This document shows, in pieces, positions 4,656 to 14,924 of a stretch of DNA of 64,000 bases. The notes beneath the pieces were generated by a model. It made no database searches. It was not told the DNA's origin and worked only from the letters and a program-made list of their open reading frames with translations. Positions within the stretch are counted from its first letter, which is position 1; every line of letters begins with the position of its first letter. Position numbers and translations under genes: made by a program. Source of the stretch: an uncultured Clostridia bacterium (GTDB lineage: Bacteria > Bacillota > Clostridia > TANB77 > CAG-508); contig CALXET010000001.1 of assembly GCA_944387405.1 (NCBI GenBank), forward strand, positions 256,969 to 320,968, in the 5' to 3' direction.

Positions 4656-5363
4656 CTATCTATCTATTTCTCCATATAAATCACTAATATATTCTATATT
4701 TTCATCTTTAATTTCTGAAAACATATTAGTATTATTTTTGTTTTCTGAATTCACATTATAATCCCTAGAAACAGAACTAGCAGTCTCTGTTGTTGTTTGT
4801 AGTCCAATACTATACGAAAATTCATCTCTTCTCTTTCCAACAGAAATCTTTGCTGAACCGTCTTCATTAAATTGTATTCCTACAATATGCTCTCCATCTC
4901 TTAATTTAGTTCTTTTTCCATCTTCTTGAATATAATCTGCTATTGATGTTGCAATAATATTATTAGACATTTTTTCTTCATTTATCGCTTCATAATATTC
5001 TTCAAATTTTTTAAATAGATTATCATAATCTTGCATTAATATAGAATCTTTTCTAAATTCAAGACCTATATCACCTGTTCTATATAAGACATCTTGAATT
5101 TCTTCTAAAAATGAAGTTACTTCACTATATACTTCTTTATTGTCTCTACCTGTTTTCTCTACTATTTTATTGGTTAAAGCATTAGTTAAGTCAAATCCAT
5201 AATAACCTTCCCTTATAGTCTCATCACCAAAAGTTTCTATCATCAATCTTGCCATTAATTGCTCATTTTCATAAGAGCCTGCATTAGTACTTACTGAAGT
5301 ATATCCTTCATTTAATAATACTGTTGGTCCTTCAAAATTTCCATTTACATGTCCGAAGCTCAT
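4656..5363 (-). CDS. Hypothetical protein, C-terminal fragment of a frameshifted gene (continues from 5332..6711)
   Basis: The ATG at 5361-5363 has no RBS (pyrimidine-rich aattcctc lies upstream). It overlaps the upstream ORF by 32 nt in another frame. Confidence 0.5.
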   Translation of the reverse strand: MSFGHVNGNFEGPTVLLNEGYTSVSTNAGSYENEQLMARLMIETFGDETIREGYYGFDLTNALTNKIVEKTGRDNKEVYSEVTSFLEEIQDVLYRTGDIGLEFRKDSILMQDYDNLFKKFEEYYEAINEEKMSNNIIATSIADYIQEDGKRTKLRDGEHIVGIQFNEDGSAKISVGKRRDEFSYSIGLQTTTETASSVSRDYNVNSENKNNTNMFSEIKDENIEYISDLYGEIDR

Positions 5364-6711
5364 GAGGAATTGTTGTTTTACTATTTTCTATAGATGAATT
5401 TAAATCTGTTCCATTAAAAACACTTATTTTTCCAGAAGCAAGTCCAATATCATCTTCTGAAATATCATATTTTTCTACAAATTCTCTCATAGATTCATAT
5501 TGTGTATAACTAACTGGCAAAGAATATTGTGCCAATGCACTTTCATACGGAGAATTATTTATTTGTCCAGAAACATCTTTACCATTCTCATGATATTCAT
5601 AGTTAATATCTAATATTCTATATCTATAATTAAGCTCATCATAATTTAAATATTCAGCATTCTCTACTAAAGTATCTAAAACAGAACCCGCTATAAAAGT
5701 CTTTTCTTCATCTGTTAGATTATCGTTATTTGCAATAGTTTCTAATATTTCTTCTACACCCTCAGGAATATTTGGCGAAGAAGTATCTTCTTCCATAGCT
5801 TTTTCTTCACTATGTAAAGGAGCTGTTCTTTGTAAATCTTCATATACAAATACAACTTCATTTTTTTCAGAATCATAGTAAAAGTTAATATCACTACTAT
5901 CTCCTTCAAAAAAAGCTATCTCATCTAATTCCTTTGATATTTCCCAATTTTCGAAGTCCTGTTCTTCAAGCTGTTTTTGTATGCTCTCATATTTTGTTTG
6001 TAAATCTTTTTCTACTTCTTCATCTGCTGTTATATCTACTTCTCCAAATTGTTGTTCAATTTGTGATTTAGTAATAAATGGAACTTTTCCACCATCTATC
6101 AAAAATTTAATACCCAATGCAGATAATGATATAGTCGCTGCAGTTCCTGCAATAGCAAAAATTAATTTTAATGGTGGTTTTTTATTTCTATTACTTCTGT
6201 TTCTATTTTGATATTGATTATTATAATAAGGATCAGAAGTCGAAAAATGACCACTTGATCCATATGGATTATATTGTCCATATGATGAGCTTGAAGAAAA
6301 TGGATCTTCCCCGCCATAACCTCTATATGCACCTTGTCTACCAGCATTTCTTTTTCTTCCTATATATAATGTTTTAGGTTTATTATAAAAGTCATATAAG
6401 TCGGAAGCTTCCTCATATGCTACTGGACGTAGTTTATCTTCATTTTTTCTTGCAAAATAGCTCATTTTATTGTATCTGTTAATATATCTTTCCAAATATT
6501 CATTTTTATATAATACATCATTTCTTCTTATATATTTTTCATTAAGGAAGTCAATTATTTTATTCATAAAACTTATCTCATTACCTTTTGTAATGAAATA
6601 AGCTTTATGATTTCTTTTAACAGCAAATCCATATAAATTATTTGTTTCATCATCTAAATAAAATGCATAATGCCTATCTAACAATTCTACATTAAACAAT
6701 ATATTTTTCAT
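5332..6711 (-). CDS. Hypothetical membrane protein, N-terminal fragment of the same frameshifted gene
   Basis: 459-aa ORF with a central TM segment and a Gly/Tyr/Asn-rich low-complexity linker. It ends in a 32-nt overlap with the next ORF. Confidence 0.5.
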   Translation of the reverse strand: MKNILFNVELLDRHYAFYLDDETNNLYGFAVKRNHKAYFITKGNEISFMNKIIDFLNEKYIRRNDVLYKNEYLERYINRYNKMSYFARKNEDKLRPVAYEEASDLYDFYNKPKTLYIGRKRNAGRQGAYRGYGGEDPFSSSSSYGQYNPYGSSGHFSTSDPYYNNQYQNRNRSNRNKKPPLKLIFAIAGTAATISLSALGIKFLIDGGKVPFITKSQIEQQFGEVDITADEEVEKDLQTKYESIQKQLEEQDFENWEISKELDEIAFFEGDSSDINFYYDSEKNEVVFVYEDLQRTAPLHSEEKAMEEDTSSPNIPEGVEEILETIANNDNLTDEEKTFIAGSVLDTLVENAEYLNYDELNYRYRILDINYEYHENGKDVSGQINNSPYESALAQYSLPVSYTQYESMREFVEKYDISEDDIGLASGKISVFNGTDLNSSIENSKTTIPHELRTCKWKF

Positions 6712-8284: not shown

Positions 8285-10945
8285 TTAAGCTGCATCATCC
8301 ATTTTTTCATCACTTGGATTACTACTCTCATCAGTAGTTTCTGCACTACTTTCAGAATCACTACCATCTACACTCTCTACTTTATCTGTATTAGTACTTG
8401 TTGAACTATCTTCATTTTGATTTTCTTGAGAAGAATTTTCATTACTATCTATATTATCCTCAATTTTATTTTCATTTGCATTTACATCATCACTATTATT
8501 GTTATTATTTGATGGCTTTTCTACTATAACTTCTTCTATAACTTTATCATCATTTTCTTTTTTCTCATTTTCAGTATTCTTACTTTCATCTACAGTATTT
8601 TTATTTACAGCTTTATTATTTTCATTCTTTTTTCCTTTATTTTTTGATGAATGATATGTACACTCAGTAGGTTCAGTACCTTTTATATAATATTCCTCAT
8701 ATGTATCTCCACAATATTTAGTAGCTTTTTTACCAGTTTTACTGCATACAGTACATGTAACTACTTTTTTAGGCTTTTCAAATCTTTTACCTTCAAGTCC
8801 TTCATGAATATCATCCATTACAGAAGACCATATTAAACCTGCAGGATTTCTTTTATTAAAATTAATTGTTTCATTTATATCAAATCCAAACCAAGTTGCT
8901 GCAGAATAATAAGAAGTAAATCCACATAGCCATCTATCATAATTTTCATTTGTAGTTCCAGTTTTAGCTGCAACATCCATATTTTTCATTTTGCAATATG
9001 TAGCTGTACCATATGTTCCATTAACAGGTTCTGTTAATAATTCTTTTACAACATATGCCGTTTCTTTTGAAAATACTTTCTTCTTTTTTTGTTTACTCTT
9101 AAGAACATTTTTCCCTTCCTGAGTTTCAATCTTAGTATAAAAAGTTGGTTCTATGTACTTACCATCATTTGCGATAGTTGCATATGCCGCAGCTGTTTCT
9201 AATGGTGTCATACCAGAATCTAAACCACCAAGTGCTAAAGCTAAGTTTTCATCTTTTTCTGTTAAAGTAGTAATACCCATCTTTTTCAAATATTTTATCG
9301 ATGTTTTAGGAGTAATCTTTTCCATCATTTTAACAAAAGGAATATTTTGAGATGACTCTACTGCTCTTCTTACAGTAATTTCACCTAAATATCCATCATA
9401 ATTTGTTGGATGGTAAGGCTCTTCTGATCCATCATTAAAGTCAGTTTCTTCATCTACAAAAGTAGTAGATGCTGTAAATATTTTCTTTTCTATTCCTGGT
9501 ACTAAAATAGCTAGTGGCTTAATCGCTGAACCTGTTTGTCTTTTAGCCTGTGTTGCTCTATTGAATCCTCTAGAAGTTTCTTTTTCTCCAAGGCCGCCAA
9601 CACATCCTACTACATAACCTGTCTTATTATCAATTACTACCATTGCAGCTTGTGAAGTTGCACCATCTGTATTTTTTGAATCTAATAAATACATTTTTTT
9701 ATTAAATTCTTTTTCCATTGTTTCTTGAATAGAATTATTTTGTGTACTATATATTTTTAAGTTTGCCATATATAAATAGTTTGTAGCAAATTCTTCAGAA
9801 ATATGCTTTCTTTCTGAAATATCTTTTATAACTTCAGATATTAATGCATCAGTATGATATGAATAAACATCAGGTTCTTTTTCTACATCAATATCGCCTC
9901 TTTTAAAATCTAGTCCTTTTTCTACTTCTTCTTTTGCTTTATTATAATCTTCTTGTGAGATATATTTAAGTTCAAGCATTTTGTTTAAAACTGTATTTGT
10001 CCTTTTCTTAATTTTTTCAGAATTATCTTCTCCTTCTCTAAATGGATTATAAGCATTAGGAGCATGATTTATTCCAGCTAAAAATGCACATTCTTCAAGA
10101 GACAAATCTTTAGCATGTTTTGAAAAATAATATTCAGCACCAGTTTCAACCCCATAAACATTTGGCCCTATATAAATAATATTTAAATATGCTTCTAATA
10201 TCTCTTCTTTTGACATAGCAACTTCTAATGCCATAGCTTTAGTCCACTCATCTACTTTACGAGTGACAGTTGCTTTAGTATTTCCAGTTAAATTTTTTAC
10301 TAATTGTTGAGTTATTGTACTTCCACCAAATGAAGCTTTTCCAAATGAAAATATATAATTTAGAGTTGCAGCACCTGTTCTTTTAATATCTACTCCTCCA
10401 TGCTTATAAAATCTTTCATCTTCTATCGCAACATATGCATTTTTTAAATTATCCGGCATCTCTTCAAAAGAAATATTTTTTCTATTTCTTTCGCTTCCTA
10501 TTTCACCAATTTTCTCCTCTGAAGTATCAACAATAATAGAAGGAGCATTTTTTATCATTTGTTTTGCAATACTTGTAAATCTTATAAGTGAAATAATAAA
10601 TAAAATAAATAATATTACAAGAACTATAATTAATACTCTAATAAGAATTTTAATTATCATTTTCTTTATTCTTGTTTTAGTATCTAGCTCTTCTTGCATA
10701 TTACCATCTATATCATTTTTATCATTTTTCTTTTTAGATGATCTTTTATTTATCTTTCTACTTGTAGCTCTACTATTTCTTCTAGAAGTAGAAGCTCTTT
10801 TTTCTTGAGAATCATTTATAATATCATCAATCTCATTATTTTTCCTTCTTCTTACTCTTTCTACATATTCTTCTCTACTTAGTCCTTCAGAAGAATGTCT
10901 TGATCTATTTTTTCTTCTATTTCCAGTTTTATTCACATACATCAA
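8285..10945 (-). CDS. Penicillin-binding protein 1A (class A PBP: transglycosylase + transpeptidase) with basic N-terminal and acidic low-complexity C-terminal extensions
   Basis: Contains GT51 motifs (EDERFYKHGGVD, GGSTITQQLVKN) and transpeptidase motifs (SAIKP, KTGTT). One TM helix. Confidence 0.9.
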   Translation of the reverse strand: MMYVNKTGNRRKNRSRHSSEGLSREEYVERVRRRKNNEIDDIINDSQEKRASTSRRNSRATSRKINKRSSKKKNDKNDIDGNMQEELDTKTRIKKMIIKILIRVLIIVLVILFILFIISLIRFTSIAKQMIKNAPSIIVDTSEEKIGEIGSERNRKNISFEEMPDNLKNAYVAIEDERFYKHGGVDIKRTGAATLNYIFSFGKASFGGSTITQQLVKNLTGNTKATVTRKVDEWTKAMALEVAMSKEEILEAYLNIIYIGPNVYGVETGAEYYFSKHAKDLSLEECAFLAGINHAPNAYNPFREGEDNSEKIKKRTNTVLNKMLELKYISQEDYNKAKEEVEKGLDFKRGDIDVEKEPDVYSYHTDALISEVIKDISERKHISEEFATNYLYMANLKIYSTQNNSIQETMEKEFNKKMYLLDSKNTDGATSQAAMVVIDNKTGYVVGCVGGLGEKETSRGFNRATQAKRQTGSAIKPLAILVPGIEKKIFTASTTFVDEETDFNDGSEEPYHPTNYDGYLGEITVRRAVESSQNIPFVKMMEKITPKTSIKYLKKMGITTLTEKDENLALALGGLDSGMTPLETAAAYATIANDGKYIEPTFYTKIETQEGKNVLKSKQKKKKVFSKETAYVVKELLTEPVNGTYGTATYCKMKNMDVAAKTGTTNENYDRWLCGFTSYYSAATWFGFDINETINFNKRNPAGLIWSSVMDDIHEGLEGKRFEKPKKVVTCTVCSKTGKKATKYCGDTYEEYYIKGTEPTECTYHSSKNKGKKNENNKAVNKNTVDESKNTENEKKENDDKVIEEVIVEKPSNNNNNSDDVNANENKIEDNIDSNENSSQENQNEDSSTSTNTDKVESVDGSDSESSAETTDESSNPSDEKMDDAA

Positions 10946-11337
10946 TCCTTTGTACTTAAATATTCATCTATAAGTTTTAATTTTTCTTTATCTTTTTCTC
11001 TTTTATTTTCTATAATCCATTTTCTTTGTATTTCTAATTTTAAAACATTAAAACCATCTATAACTTTAATGTCATTTAAATCAAAATCTTCAACTTTTAA
11101 TTCTATATTATTAGAAAGTTCATATAAATTTTCCATCTTAGTACTCTTTACTAGATTATATTTTTCTTTTAATTTGTTAAATAATTCTGGTTTTATTTTT
11201 AAGTCAATATCTTCAGTATCATTTTTTAAACCATACATTAAGTATGATCCTCCAGCAATTATACAAAACTTATCTTTAGGAAAACTTAAACTTTTAACAA
11301 TTTCTATAAATTCCTTTTTGTTCATTAAAAACCTCAA
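10942..11337 (-). CDS. Small protein with Pol-beta-type nucleotidyltransferase-fold signature (GGS…DIDL)
   Basis: Motif IAGGSYLMYGLKNDTEDIDLKI matches hG[GS]x9-13DhD. Its stop overlaps the PBP start (ATGA), which implies co-transcription. Confidence 0.35.
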   Translation of the reverse strand: MRFLMNKKEFIEIVKSLSFPKDKFCIIAGGSYLMYGLKNDTEDIDLKIKPELFNKLKEKYNLVKSTKMENLYELSNNIELKVEDFDLNDIKVIDGFNVLKLEIQRKWIIENKREKDKEKLKLIDEYLSTKD

Positions 11338-11459
11338 TTTATTTTAAAAATTATATTTAACATATTTTTTAATTTTTATTTATTTCAAATAAACTTATTA
11401 TTATTCGAAATTTTTATTTTATATTATTGTATACTAACTTATAATCTTTTTCAACAAAA

Positions 11460-11481
11460 CCGGCGGGGTCTTTTCCCCGCC
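11460..11481 (-). terminator. GC-rich intrinsic terminator of the GC-rich cassette gene
   Basis: ccggcgggg-tctttt-ccccgcc hairpin, followed on the minus strand by a U-rich tail. Confidence 0.7.
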
Positions 11482-11511
11482 ATAAAATAGTTTTGGTTAC
11501 TGTCTAATTTA

Positions 11512-12027
11512 CTATAAGAAGACAGCGCAAGAAATTTCATGCATCCTAGTTTCTCCATGCTCAAAAGTTAACGCAATCATGGTCCCCGGCATTTCCTCAA
11601 GGTTTACCCATGTAGCATCTGTTGTAAATGGTTTTAACCCATTTTCGTCAGTAATGCTTGCTTGCAAATAGTGAAAATTTCTTGTAGTGCGAATTGTCAT
11701 TTTTGTTCCAGGATATTTTCCCAGATACAGCTTTTTTGTTTTCGCACCGTTGTCTATGCGGCTATTTCCTCCTATTCTTTCTAACCGGAAGATCTTATTT
11801 TCATCAAGATCTATAAGATAGTATGACTGTTCAATCAAAACCGTTTTATATGTTCCTTTAATATATTCTACAAGACACATAGTCCTTACAGTAGTAGGAA
11901 CATATCCGATTTTTACATAGTCATCCCCTTTTTCTAGAATCTTGAAGTCTTTAAGCCCCATACCGTCTTCACATACAAGCAAAATGCTTTTTTTGCCATT
12001 TGTTTTTAGCATTTCAATCCGGTACAT
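11512..12027 (-). CDS. Hypothetical protein in a GC-richer (~38% vs ~25%) self-contained cassette
   Basis: RBS ggaggtaag precedes ATG 12025-12027. Own TTGACA-18-TATAAT promoter (12068-12097). GC-rich terminator downstream. No recognisable motif. Confidence 0.6.
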   Translation of the reverse strand: MYRIEMLKTNGKKSILLVCEDGMGLKDFKILEKGDDYVKIGYVPTTVRTMCLVEYIKGTYKTVLIEQSYYLIDLDENKIFRLERIGGNSRIDNGAKTKKLYLGKYPGTKMTIRTTRNFHYLQASITDENGLKPFTTDATWVNLEEMPGTMIALTFEHGETRMHEISCAVFL

Positions 12028-12067
12028 ATTCTTACCTCCTAATATTTTTTCCAAAGTATTATATAAC

Positions 12068-12097
12068 TTTTTGTCTTATTCTGTCAATTTTTTGCTA
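12068..12097 (-). promoter_or_regulatory. Consensus sigma-A promoter (TTGACA-18-TATAAT) for the GC-rich cassette gene
   Basis: Reverse-complement reads ttgacagaataagacaaaaagttatataat. Confidence 0.55.
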
Positions 12098-12113
12098 TAA
12101 CTAAAAATATACA

Positions 12114-12161
12114 CATAAATACTAATTTAAATTAGTATTATGTGTATATTTATTTTAAGTA
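12114..12161 (-). terminator. Long inverted repeat / terminator after the deaminase-like gene
   Basis: ~23-bp arms aaaatatacacataaatactaattt / aaattagtattatgtgtatattt, followed by a T-run on the minus strand. Confidence 0.5.
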
Positions 12162-12220
12162 TATTTACTTTATTTTATTTAATTTTATTTAATTTTGTTA
12201 TATTTATATTTAACTAAAAA

Positions 12221-14722
12221 TTAAACAATCTCTGGATTATCATTTATTATAGTATCTACAATAGTCTCATCTACTTTAAATGGAACTACATATCCTCCTA
12301 ATGAATTTGCCTTATCTTTTAGAGCTGTTACATCTGAATTTACATATATTCTAGCTTTTCCTTTACCATTCTTTGCTTCTTGAACTAAATTTGAAACTGG
12401 TGAATTACCATCAAAAGCTACTACGATAGATTTTCTTCTCTCAAATATCTCATAATTAAAGCTTTTATATATACCGAAACCTTCACTTTCATTAGATATA
12501 CAAACACCATTTAACTCATCTTCACTTATAAGTCTATTTTTCTCTTCTTTAGAAATGGCCTTTGGAATAATTGCATCAATCTCTAGATTTTTGTTATACT
12601 CTTTTGCAATATCTACTAGAGCTTTTTCATAACCTTGCATTTTATGTCCAACTACAAAATAAACTTTATTACTATCTACTTTATTTACTAATTCTTTAAT
12701 AGTGTTTAATCCACTTTCATTAATTACTGTTTTTCTATGTTTTGTATTAAAACTTCCACCAGCAATTATTATAGGAACTTTATCTATTGGAAGTGCTTTT
12801 ATTTTATTTTTTAATTCTTCTTCTGAGTTTAATTTATTATTAACTCTTAAGTCAATCTTTGGAACTATTTTTTTATATTTTTCTTCTAAATCTAATATAG
12901 TTTCTCTAATACTTCTTCCGTTACATATTTTTTCGAATTTCTTTTTCTTCTCTTCAAAATAATCGTCATTATAAGATATAATCTCATCTTCAACTTTTCT
13001 CATCTTTTCAAAATCATCATTTGAAAGTCCTATTAAATTTTGAAGACTTAATTGTTCATCTATTGTATCTACACCATATATTCCGCACCCATCTGTTCCT
13101 TGAACACATTTAATTCCATTTTCTAAATATTTTTTTAATGGATGATGCTTTAAATTAGTCAAGTTATTTAATCTAACATTTGACGTAAATTGGAACTCTA
13201 ATACTACTCCTGTCTCTTTCATCTCACATATAAGTTCTTTTCCTTCTTTTGAATTAAGATTAGCAGTATATAAACCATGACCTATTCTAAATCTAGGGAT
13301 CTTTTTCCCAGGGCTTACAGATTCTTTTACACACTCAATAGATTTTTTTACATTATCTCTTAATGAATCATTCTCTCCGGCATGTATTCTTATAGTAAAT
13401 CCCTCATCTTCATTATTTGCATATTTAACTAATTCTTTAATCATTGGTTTTAGTTCTGATATATCATTTATTTCTTCTCCTATAAAATCAGAACCTACTA
13501 CATACGGATCTTTTGCAACTGCATATAAGGCAACTAAATTATCTGCTAAATAATTGTCTGTAACTCCTTCTTCTTTTTTTATTGTTAAAGGAATTCTTCT
13601 AAGTCCCATTAAAAACCTAATTTTCACACCTGTATCTTCTTCGATTTTTGGAAGAACATCATGTGCATCTTCTAAAACTTTTATTGCGGGTTCTCCTAAT
13701 TTATTTAAATCTGTATCTGTAATTTCAGTATAATATATTCCTTGTTTTTTATATTCTCTTGCTATCCATAAATACTTATCTTGTCTTAATGTATTATTTG
13801 CATACTTACTTTTAGGCTTTGCATCTTCAAGCATTTTAAATAGATAATTTTTAATATCTTCTTCAGGAATTTTTTCAATATCTTCTTTATTTATTTTAAT
13901 TAAATCATCCGAAGTTTTTCCTTTACAAAATACATATCTATATAAATATAATTTTTCTAAGTTTGTAAATACTGCTTGGCCATCTTTTAATATTACTAAA
14001 CTGTTTCTTATTTTTGATATATTTTCTTTTGCATTTTCTATATTATTTAAAATTAAATCTGCAAAATTGATAAATGTATTATCATCAATTCTTCTAGTTA
14101 AATATTTTCCTGTAAGTCCACAATTTTCATATTCTTTTTCTACAGGAATCCTTCTTTTTAAAATTATCTCTTCTTGCTTTTTAGTAAGTTTTAAATTTAA
14201 TTTTTTAATATAATATAAAGGATATCTAAGCTGCCTTTTAATCCCCAGTGCAATTAAAACATCTGGTGACAAATTAGCATTCATATGTGTATGTAAATCT
14301 GTTCTAAATTTAAGTTTTTTAAGAACATATGATTTTAAGATAGTTTGGTGAATATTCAATTTATAATCTTTCGTCTGAGACATTAATGTTTTAGATATAA
14401 CAGGAATTCTTGCTTTAACTTCAATTCTATCATTATATATATTGGCAATTTTCATTCCTCCTAATCTTAAAATATAAACCTCCTCATTATCTCCATTTAA
14501 AGATGCTGGTATTATTCCTTTAATTATTTTCATGTCGTTTTCATCTTTTTCTATTGGAAGATTACATATCTTTGCTATATTTGATATTAAATTCCCTGTT
14601 TTATGATTTGGTGTACGTATTATAAAACAAAGCTCATCTATATTTTCTGTCTTATATAAATGAACTTGTATGTCTTTTTCTTTATCTAAGTAAAATTTAT
14701 TAAAATATATTAATTTTTCCAT
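12221..14722 (-). CDS. Large multidomain adenosine/AMP-deaminase-like protein (amidohydrolase core) with extra N- and C-terminal domains. The C-terminal domain may be a LOG/SLOG-like Rossmann fold.
   Basis: The core carries DLHTHMN (HxH), IRIHAGEN (HAGE), FRIGHGLY (RIGHG), EFQFTSNVRL (≈vCPiSNv.l) and VQGTDGCG (≈TDDP). The ORF is intact at 833 aa. The C-terminal ~200 aa reads IIIAGGSF…VVGHKMQG…VVAFDGNSPVSNLVQEA. Confidence 0.6.
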   Translation of the reverse strand: MEKLIYFNKFYLDKEKDIQVHLYKTENIDELCFIIRTPNHKTGNLISNIAKICNLPIEKDENDMKIIKGIIPASLNGDNEEVYILRLGGMKIANIYNDRIEVKARIPVISKTLMSQTKDYKLNIHQTILKSYVLKKLKFRTDLHTHMNANLSPDVLIALGIKRQLRYPLYYIKKLNLKLTKKQEEIILKRRIPVEKEYENCGLTGKYLTRRIDDNTFINFADLILNNIENAKENISKIRNSLVILKDGQAVFTNLEKLYLYRYVFCKGKTSDDLIKINKEDIEKIPEEDIKNYLFKMLEDAKPKSKYANNTLRQDKYLWIAREYKKQGIYYTEITDTDLNKLGEPAIKVLEDAHDVLPKIEEDTGVKIRFLMGLRRIPLTIKKEEGVTDNYLADNLVALYAVAKDPYVVGSDFIGEEINDISELKPMIKELVKYANNEDEGFTIRIHAGENDSLRDNVKKSIECVKESVSPGKKIPRFRIGHGLYTANLNSKEGKELICEMKETGVVLEFQFTSNVRLNNLTNLKHHPLKKYLENGIKCVQGTDGCGIYGVDTIDEQLSLQNLIGLSNDDFEKMRKVEDEIISYNDDYFEEKKKKFEKICNGRSIRETILDLEEKYKKIVPKIDLRVNNKLNSEEELKNKIKALPIDKVPIIIAGGSFNTKHRKTVINESGLNTIKELVNKVDSNKVYFVVGHKMQGYEKALVDIAKEYNKNLEIDAIIPKAISKEEKNRLISEDELNGVCISNESEGFGIYKSFNYEIFERRKSIVVAFDGNSPVSNLVQEAKNGKGKARIYVNSDVTALKDKANSLGGYVVPFKVDETIVDTIINDNPEIV

Positions 14723-14864
14723 ATATACTTTTATCCCTTCTACTTAATTATTTTTTCTGCTAGTTAATTTAATATTTTATCATATTTTTAATATAATTCC
14801 AATAGATTTTAGTAAAAAAGTTTAGTTTATGTAAACAAAAGAAGTCTAATAGATAGAAGTAAAT

Positions 14865-14906
14865 AAAAGCTTCTCTTTATAAAAATATAAATAGAAGCTT
14901 TTATTT
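14865..14906 (-). terminator. Terminator after mgtA
   Basis: aaagcttctc…gagaagcttt inverted repeat with a T-rich tail. Confidence 0.5.
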
Positions 14907-14924
14907 TTATTTATTAAATTTTTA

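Follow-up and report, generated by a model that had tools for sequence, protein, structure and literature searches.

A gene whose composition stands out and that has a promoter and a terminator to itself is commonly taken for a recent horizontal import. Phage morons, reportedly described in lambdoid phages by Juhala, Hendrix and colleagues, have such a layout: a single extra gene of deviant composition, placed between two genes, with a sigma-70-type promoter and a factor-independent terminator of its own. The same layout is found in a cassette built around a gene for a 171-amino-acid (aa) protein, in a 64,000-nucleotide (nt) stretch of DNA from an uncultured Clostridia bacterium (GenBank assembly GCA_944387405.1, contig CALXET010000001.1, positions 256,969 to 320,968). 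This whole stretch is hereafter called the window, and coordinates refer to it unless another locus is named. Unlike a moron, however, the cassette is flanked by chromosomal genes (PBP1A, the 127-aa gene N127, a deaminase-like gene, a P-type ATPase, Suf/ABC and CobW-type genes), its family has no match in PHROGs, INPHARED or IMG/VR, and all relatives have it in the same slot, in the form of divergent alleles. It also differs from a recently acquired genomic island, as neither presence/absence polymorphism nor a donor lineage with matching composition was found, and no mobility gene, tRNA or repeat at the borders. The family seems instead to be long-resident in genomes of 26-30% GC.

Replacement-type islets and balanced polymorphic loci, among them the capsule, O-antigen, pherotype and bacteriocin-immunity loci, lie between conserved core genes. 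The cassette resembles them in its fixed position, its conserved flanks and its alleles, which are more divergent than the flanks (synonymous divergence, dS, of 1.44 against 0.27-0.60), a pattern repeated at two other slots. Unlike the capsule and O-antigen loci, in which many genes together specify a surface structure, it consists of one 0.65-kb gene of one cytoplasmic family, with a persistent unusual codon composition. Orphan immunity arrays, or acquired interbacterial defence clusters, are said to have been reported from Bacteroidales by Ross et al. in 2019. Small cytoplasmic proteins without catalytic motifs, tandem divergent paralogues with their own promoters, atypical GC and inter-strain variability are common to these arrays and to the cassette family. 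However, members of the family have no homologue among known immunity families, the 12 contexts examined contain neither a cognate toxin nor a recombinase or mobile element, the host is a Firmicute, and the arrays hold 1-3 genes, all of one family. Integron cassettes are likewise single-gene units that form short arrays at a fixed site, with content that is highly variable among relatives, but the present cassette has its own promoter and a simple terminator hairpin that is not attC, and no integrase lies within +/-10 kb. Finally, the bldA/TTA system of Streptomyces is a case of rare-codon translational control. As in that system, an accessory gene keeps a codon that is near-absent from native genes at a fixed place close to its start, here CGG as codon 3. 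Comparative alignment columns suggest that CGG is still read as arginine, and the likeness is one of codon pattern.

On balance, and with modest confidence, we favour the view that this is an autonomously expressed, balanced-polymorphic accessory cassette, that its product is a putative conflict-type binding protein and that its G/C-rich codon usage is maintained in place. What is new here is an autonomous hypervariable cassette that joins a codon composition far from host equilibrium to a conserved, nearly unused third codon.

A self-contained unit of deviant composition

The cassette is a self-contained transcription unit between chromosomal genes, with its own promoter, ribosome-binding site and terminator. 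These elements and their immediate surroundings are as follows:

11326-12220, minus strand: variable block (the slot), from the stop codon of the deaminase-like gene to the start of the 127-aa gene
12105-12151, minus strand: A/T-only terminator hairpin of the 833-aa deaminase-like gene, outside the cassette (-19.3 kcal/mol, z -6.4)
12082-12087, minus strand: -35 hexamer TTGACA, which together with the -10 box matches the consensus at 12/12 positions
12058-12063, minus strand: -10 hexamer TATAAT, in the context TATATAAT, 18 nt from the -35 hexamer
12035-12040, minus strand: Shine-Dalgarno sequence AGGAGG, 7 nt before the ATG
12019-12021, minus strand: codon 3, CGG (Arg), nucleotide-invariant wherever the family has Arg there
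11512-12027, minus strand: coding sequence of the 171-aa protein, ATG at 12025-12027, stop codon TAG at 11512-11514
11451-11482, minus strand: intrinsic terminator with the stem GGCGGGG/CCCCGCC (7 bp, G/C), the loop AAAAGA and a U-run, then GGUUUUGUUG (-19.3 kcal/mol, z -3.97)

A first-pass annotation of this DNA had reported a perfect TTGACA-18-TATAAT promoter and a strong ribosome-binding site, and both were confirmed. The promoter, whose consensus is of the sigma-A type, is the sole perfect one in the 64 kb, where 0.18 are expected by chance. At least one perfect match arose in 17 of 100 shuffles of the window, so that the match by itself is not significant; the promoter gains weight because it is conserved in all homologues. 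The terminator had rightly been called atypical for this genome, since the hairpin of the upstream deaminase-like gene is equally stable and yet purely A/T. A 180-aa version of the open reading frame (ORF), with a TTG start, is merely a mechanical extension of the 171-aa gene. An Rfam scan of the region gave no structured RNA, just a chance miRNA-like match on the neighbouring A/T hairpin, and no tRNA gene was found in the window. The cassette borders are ordinary A/T-rich spacers, without tRNA or repeats and without an integrase or transposase among the neighbouring genes.

The composition is strongly deviant, as the annotation had claimed, although the GC content of the gene, 0.362, is slightly lower than the ~38% it gave. 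The GC fractions at the first, second and third codon positions (GC1/GC2/GC3) are 0.42/0.34/0.33, and the deviation is concentrated at third positions. Compared with a native reference set of 51 ORFs of the window (GC3 mean 0.1185, standard deviation 0.024, maximum 0.179), the GC3 of 0.331 corresponds to z = 8.8 (binomial P ~2e-13), and the 500-nt block 11501-12000 has a GC of 0.36 against 0.20 and 0.23 in the flanking blocks and 0.261 in the whole window. The gene is not the only ORF of the contig with such a composition, for the window holds two similar outliers (see below). Codons from the host's 22 rarest occur 20 times in the cassette, against 4.5 expected. In the cassettes, the third-position shift hits all codon families and is larger for A>G (A from 0.47 to 0.29, G from 0.07 to 0.23) than for T>C (T from 0.43 to 0.35, C from 0.035 to 0.14). 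The non-coding GC of the variable block of the window is 0.14, compared with 0.164 +/- 0.05 for host intergenic DNA. In the window, G/C-richness is limited to the coding sequence and the terminator.

The gene encodes a real protein under purifying selection, and its tiny, undescribed family is restricted to one clade of uncultured, very AT-rich Clostridia of the gut. The ratio of non-synonymous to synonymous divergence (dN/dS) is 0.20-0.26 between alleles, and 0.23 between the window allele and an allele with 56% protein identity. In agreement with the first-pass annotation, the protein is without recognisable motif: searches of Pfam, NCBIfam, PHROGs, PADLOC and PDB sequences with the protein and 15-21 family members gave scattered chance-level matches only. 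The best PDB profile match, to an OB-fold telomere protein, had an expectation value (E) of 0.11, at chance level, and PADLOC gave single-member chance-level matches and no known anti-phage defence model. A word-indexed search of 5.8 billion proteins returned a single cluster (98% identity). When 1.84 billion representatives were scanned exhaustively with HMMER, 14 clusters came up, with lengths of 148-179 aa except for one 63-aa fragment, to which profile searches added just close kin and a 148-150-aa sub-type. Moreover, a search for the DNA pattern formed by promoter, ribosome-binding site and start codon gave 17 matches, including two new family loci (L112, L121). No family member was found in phage, plasmid and viral collections (tblastn against INPHARED and PLSDB, pattern scan of IMG/VR).

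The family consensus reads MYRKE...G.GIKNFKI...YYVLD...R...MPG...LDF...FLN. Its N- and C-terminal thirds are conserved and its middle (about residues 85-145) is variable, and the invariant residues G24, Y70, D73 and R81 form no obvious catalytic set. AlphaFold2, run with a 15-sequence alignment, gave an all-beta model of 14 strands (predicted local distance difference test, pLDDT, 91.1; predicted template modelling score, pTM, 0.85); the single-sequence model was unusable (pLDDT 38). A Foldseek comparison of the alignment-based model with PDB and BFVD gave no match, the best E being 0.07 and the template modelling score at most 0.3. The protein is predicted to be cytoplasmic and all-beta, with a fold that has no detectable relative in these two databases.

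We also noted a difference at the C-terminus. The window allele ends in ...VFL-TAG (11512-11514), whereas the 98% allele (L001, 2782-2787) has CAG (Gln) at that codon, followed directly by its stop, and in all other members of the family FL is likewise followed by one more residue. In the window strain and in L061, the last residue was lost through a C>T change.

Allele classes at a fixed slot and at two further slots

The gene order at the slot is P-type ATPase, 833-aa deaminase-like gene, cassette, N127 and PBP1A. Of 13 independent contigs from the species complex, all have a cassette there and none an empty site; a strain-specific insertion, which the first-pass annotation had proposed to look for among relatives, is not supported by this occupancy. 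Alleles of 96-98% identity were found in L001-4, L103-4 and L061, the last being a complete metagenome-assembled genome (MAG; OZ006973.1), and the allele with a 56%-identical protein (P0002) in four contigs (L085-88). Between the window and the P0002 contigs, the flanking proteins are 97% (ATPase), 89% (deaminase-like), 90% (N127) and 96% (PBP1A) identical. For the window and L085, the dS of the cassette is 1.44, compared with 0.27, 0.60 and 0.32 for the flanks, and sliding identity is 0.45-0.72 in the slot compared with 0.72-0.99 (mostly >=0.85) in the flanks. The hyperdivergent block covers exactly 11.3-12.25 kb and is the sole such part of a syntenic region of ~9 kb. Inside it, conservation is much higher in the promoter, the 5' untranslated region, codons 1-5 and the last codons than elsewhere, and the L085 allele carries a different G/C-rich hairpin at the position of the terminator. 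The pattern at the slot is one of discrete allele classes, and synonymous divergence suggests that these classes are older than the surrounding chromosome.

At shorter range, the dS of the cassette between the window and L061 is 0.089, below the 0.17-0.25 of the flanks, and between the window and L001 the cassette equals its flanks. The short-term dS is therefore not raised, which argues against steady hypermutation. Hypermutation, or a role as target of a diversity-generating retroelement, was rejected on this ground and because no reverse-transcriptase domain is present among the neighbours and the divergence spans the whole ORF.

A third allele class is found in L099, a metagenomic contig of 1.1 kb in which the 3' end of the deaminase-like gene, at 79% nt identity, is followed by two tandem cassettes. 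The first of these represents the third class (P0003; 44% aa identity, GC3 0.48), and the second is 97-98% identical to the allele of the window and L061. Positions 813-1083 of L099 match 12115-11846 of the window at 96.7%, the homology beginning at 12115.

In 79 other species of the clade that have the deaminase-like gene (55-68% identity), this synteny is absent and no family member lies within 6 kb. The insertion is specific to the species complex, and it is neither strain-specific nor recent. A search of JGI metagenomes with the N127 protein, aimed at empty sites and wider synteny, found nothing. A functional link between the cassette and the deaminase-like gene was considered and rejected, because members at the other two slots are not adjacent to such a gene and because the 79 species that have it lack the cassette.

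The two other slots that the family occupies are represented by these loci:

L089/90, L097, L100-102, L123, L124-127: slot b, following PRK-RNHCP and bounded on the other side by a convergent U32 peptidase; 1-3 tandem cassettes
L091, L121, L128: slot c, after RNase Y and a 212-aa sigma factor

Three paralogues stand in tandem in L089. At slots b and c, the cassette proteins are 34-49% identical compared with 80-95% for the flanks (34% against 85-95%, and 36-49% against 80-93%). All members examined have a common layout, TTGACA(T)-N17/18-TATAAT, (A)GGAGG(T), ATG TAY CGG and a G/C-rich hairpin. The sequence TATATAAT lies upstream of most homologues in the three slots, and two carry GTATAAT. In a neighbour-joining tree the alleles group by slot, which indicates that they diversified in place and are not random draws from an outside pool. 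The 12/12 clusters with context examined lie beside core genes in contigs of 26-30% GC, and no integrase, recombinase or mobile element adjoins a family member in these 12 contexts.

These observations bear on the origin proposed in the first-pass annotation, namely a recent, moron-like import from a Firmicute of ~37% GC or its mobile element, which brought promoter and terminator along and still awaits amelioration to the host composition. We consider this origin quite unlikely. It would account for GC values at the three codon positions that resemble those of a genome of ~36-38% GC, for the self-contained build of the cassette and for the ~4% of clade genes (32/775) that are similar small G/C-richer orphans, as expected for a stream of imports; the absence of the slot from the 79 other species also makes the insertion lineage-specific. 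However, the slot is filled in 13/13 contigs, and the allele classes differ at saturated synonymous sites and cluster by slot. No homologue was found outside hosts of 26-30% GC among the 1.84 billion representatives, nor in the phage, plasmid and viral collections, and the GC3 of the family reaches 0.65 in hosts with a GC3 of 0.11-0.15. In addition, the borders are without integrase, transposase, tRNA or repeat, and the non-coding GC of the variable block is host-like. A recent acquisition from a higher-GC Firmicute is thus not supported, given the full occupancy, alleles older than their flanks and, in all contexts examined, hosts of 26-30% GC. The term moron-like fits the autonomous unit and its non-native composition, but the flanks are chromosomal genes and not those of a phage. 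The annotation had named ordinary composition, or conservation at this locus across the genus, as findings that would speak against its proposal: the GC and codon statistics are strongly deviant, yet the gene is conserved at the locus across the species complex.

Probable maintenance of the G/C-rich codons and a putative role in conflict

The GC3 of the family ranges from 0.20 to 0.65, compared with 0.07-0.24, mostly <=0.16, for neighbouring genes. The alleles at the slot of the window (slot a) have GC3 values of 0.33, 0.35 and 0.48, despite saturated synonymous divergence and joint clustering. Synonymous variation inside allele classes is nil. Because the alleles have reached synonymous saturation inside AT-rich genomes and yet show GC3 values of 0.2-0.65, we think it probable that their codon usage is actively maintained within these genomes and is not a residual donor signal. 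Selection on the mRNA or on its translation would be the likelier cause. The slot itself would act as a replacement islet, in which deeply divergent allele classes, sometimes in tandem, are swapped among lineages by homologous recombination.

The most extreme member, P0011 (L124, 10001-10495), has a GC of 0.50 and a GC3 of 0.65, with 0.42 G and 0.12 A at third positions; the L124 contig is 207 kb long, and the genes near P0011 have GC3 values of 0.11-0.15. The spacers 3' of slot-c cassettes are unusually long (L091 3288-3776, 489 nt; L121 3207-3940, 734 nt) and have a GC of 0.31-0.36, against 0.16 in host spacers. The L121 spacer contains no ORF of >=80 aa. These spacers may be decayed cassettes or contain small unannotated genes.

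Retention of an old signal would offer another account of the same composition. One or several old imports could have come from an unsampled GC-rich reservoir, with a GC3 of >=0.65 at entry, and ameliorated slowly and unevenly since, the hypervariability then resulting from relaxed or diversifying selection together with recombination. The spread of allele GC3 over 0.20-0.65, with slot-c alleles lowest (0.20-0.24), agrees with such a decay, as do a host-like GC2 (0.26-0.36) beside a high GC3 and recent polarised changes in the window allele that are compatible with host mutation rates. However, no reservoir was found in ~15 billion proteins, and the sister alleles L089b (GC3 0.41) and L124 (0.65), which share one slot, would need very unequal decay in similar hosts. 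Moreover, the synonymous sites of the window and L085 alleles have turned over (dS ~1.4) and both still have a GC3 of 0.33-0.35, with gains about equal to losses. We regard an old import as unlikely.

A local, non-selective process biased towards G/C could also act in place, either GC-biased gene conversion at a recombination hot slot or transcription-associated A>G mutation of the non-template strand under the very strong promoter, and either would render the loci G/C-rich and quick to diverge. Three unrelated families, the cassette family and two others of 225 and 190 aa described below, couple G/C-richness with hyperdivergence, the loci show mosaic recombination, and the third-position shift is asymmetric, to an extreme degree in L123 and L124. 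Against this, the 5' non-coding part of the variable block of the window is as AT-rich as host spacers (0.14), and the short-term synonymous divergence of the cassette is not raised (0.089 against 0.17-0.25). Exchange of non-homologous alleles would also give little heteroduplex for biased repair, and the rise of C at third positions is unexplained by adenine deamination on one strand. Such a process is therefore an improbable cause.

Several points weigh against a maintained composition and a balanced polymorphism. A GC-richer reservoir may exist outside current sampling. The dS of ~1.4 approaches saturation, and the neighbour-joining tree carries no support values. Balancing selection is inferred from three allele classes at the slot, known from MAG and metagenome contigs only, and L099, with just 1.1 kb, is possibly chimeric. 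The family-average non-coding GC of the cassettes, promoter and terminator elements included, is 0.24-0.32, above that of host intergenic DNA. The 18 polarised recent substitutions (8 AT>GC against 10 GC>AT) fit both maintenance and amelioration, and triplet parsimony gives gains about equal to losses for the window and L085, but this test is confounded by base composition. As for a role in conflict, a toxin, secretion, phage or defence gene lies beside a member in 0/12 contexts, and no member has a consistent PADLOC, PHROG or Pfam match.

The protein is a putative binding component in genetic conflict, where it could confer orphan immunity to a toxin of a competitor or act against phages or other elements. 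We propose this role because the protein is small and cytoplasmic and has no catalytic invariants, because its middle part is variable, and because paralogues occur in tandem, alleles appear balanced and the promoter is strong and constitutive. The variable middle would then set the specificity. The profile of the family is what one would expect of an immunity- or defence-type factor not yet described, here in a widespread gut lineage that has not been cultured. If the maintained composition is real, the cassette would be a natural case of codon and GC content held far from mutational equilibrium in specific genes; it would matter for the debated question of how far selection, biased gene conversion and mutation each determine bacterial GC, and would call for caution with composition-based calls of horizontal transfer in extreme-GC genomes.

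Codon 3 and the genes of the neighbourhood

The arginine at codon 3 is encoded by CGG in 12/12 sequences (~10 allele classes), and two later-found alleles likewise start ATGTACCGG. The other invariant arginine, R81, is encoded by five codons (AGA, AGG, CGT, CGA and CGG). A CGG that is fixed at codon 3 while the R81 codon varies indicates synonymous constraint. CGG is missing from codon 3 in one allele only, P0011 (L124), which has CAA (Gln) there. In the native ORFs of the window, CGN codons are used about once per thousand codons, with CGC 0, CGG 1, CGA 3 and CGT 18 times in 17,314 codons; CCC, CTG, CTC and TCC each occur <=6 times in the same set.

Reassignment of CGG to Trp or Gln is not supported, since CGG aligns with invariant Arg and with Lys/Arg columns, with the caveat that the exceptional allele carries CAA (Gln) at codon 3. 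Judged from these columns, CGG most likely still decodes as Arg in the host. A fold of the 5' mRNA that involves CGG, sequestering the Shine-Dalgarno sequence or otherwise conserved, was also rejected, as no consistent structure was found across 11 alleles. According to Shulgina & Eddy 2021 (PMC8629427), some lineages of low-GC Firmicutes with similar CGG usage leave the codon unassigned or have it reassigned to Gln or Trp, with a CGG case in Mycoplasma capricolum (Oba et al. 1991, as cited in PMC8629427). The GC of the cassette host, 0.26, lies within the range of these organisms. Its CGN usage lies in the CGG-unassigned or -reassigned range as well, which makes the host a candidate for a genetic-code check. 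The invariant codon 3 thereby ties the locus to the question of unassigned and reassigned arginine codons in low-GC Firmicutes, in a form that is testable.

Within the reading that we favour, the rare third codon, CGG, probably acts as a brake or gate on the initiation of translation and on early elongation. A stronger version would make the cassette a codon-gated conflict gene, in which selection keeps the rare G/C codons, chiefly the CGG at codon 3, for the gating of translation. Transcription would be constitutive, and the protein would accumulate only once tRNAs that decode CGG, or G/C-ending codons, become available, their supply being developmental or provided in trans by an infecting phage or element with tRNA genes of its own. 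We consider this version very unlikely to hold. If it did, the cassette would be a mirror image of the bldA/TTA control of Streptomyces, with the sensor placed in a hypervariable family of the immunity or defence type, and the same logic would extend to the whole class of small, autonomous genes of the clade that are G/C-rich and hyperdivergent (~4% of genes).

These other genes were surveyed in ~0.9 Mb of clade loci, where 32 of 775 ORFs (~4%) have a GC3 >=0.28. Nearly all of them are small (~90-250 aa), and most are apparently orphans. In the 16 that were inspected with their flanks, a TATAAT-like -10 box is present, usually together with GGAGG, and the terminator is G/C-rich. The two in the window form a convergent pair, 54240-54782 on the plus strand, encoding 180 aa with a C-terminal hydrophobic segment, and 54962-55570 on the minus strand, encoding 202 aa. 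With GC3 values of 0.38 and 0.39, they lie well above the native genes (~0.12). Both are preceded by a TG-extended TATAAT promoter and a GGAGG and followed by a G/C-rich terminator, and each contains 34-36 codons from the host's 22 rarest against ~5 expected. Pfam gave no match for either. The two genes show the same anomaly as the cassette and belong to different families.

Two further families were noted at other loci. The members of a 225-aa family that follows RecG (L089 910-1587, L124 6830-7507) are 38% identical to each other, compared with 88-92% for the neighbouring RecG, PRK and RNHCP, and those of a 190-aa family beside the deaminase-like gene (L021 5178-5765, L032 4861-5433) are 45% identical, compared with 85%. 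The GC3 of both families is 0.34-0.50. This suggests that G/C-richness and fast allelic turnover are coupled across the clade.

In L061 (OZ006973.1), the closest complete genome, an extra AT-rich two-gene insert (5143-5834) lies between the P-type ATPase and the deaminase-like gene, where the window has the spacer 14723-14924. By eye, it appears to consist of a HEPN-like 129-aa gene that overlaps a gene for a 106-aa minimal nucleotidyltransferase (GS...DIDI), and would be a putative HEPN-MNT toxin-antitoxin pair. Since the insert is missing from the window, the neighbourhood is a hot spot for accessory genes, and since it is AT-rich, accessory genes here are not automatically G/C-rich.

The two genes that border the slot are:

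12221-14722, minus strand: 833-aa deaminase-like gene, with a central adenosine-deaminase domain (PF00962, E 4e-19)
10942-11325, minus strand: 127-aa gene (N127), whose stop codon overlaps the start of PBP1A by one base

The 833-aa protein scores far below NCBIfam equivalog cut-offs, and ~300 N-terminal and 250 C-terminal residues are without an assigned domain. PADLOC gave a weak match to the deaminase part of its CARF-ADA model (3.7e-8). The gene is present at 55-68% identity in >=79 other clade species, where synteny is not conserved, and its 3' end is markedly more divergent toward the cassette. N127 matches phrog_12854 (function unknown) at 2.8e-13 and has a GGS...DID motif that resembles those of minimal nucleotidyltransferases. 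Its pairing with PBP1A is preserved in all relatives of the species complex.

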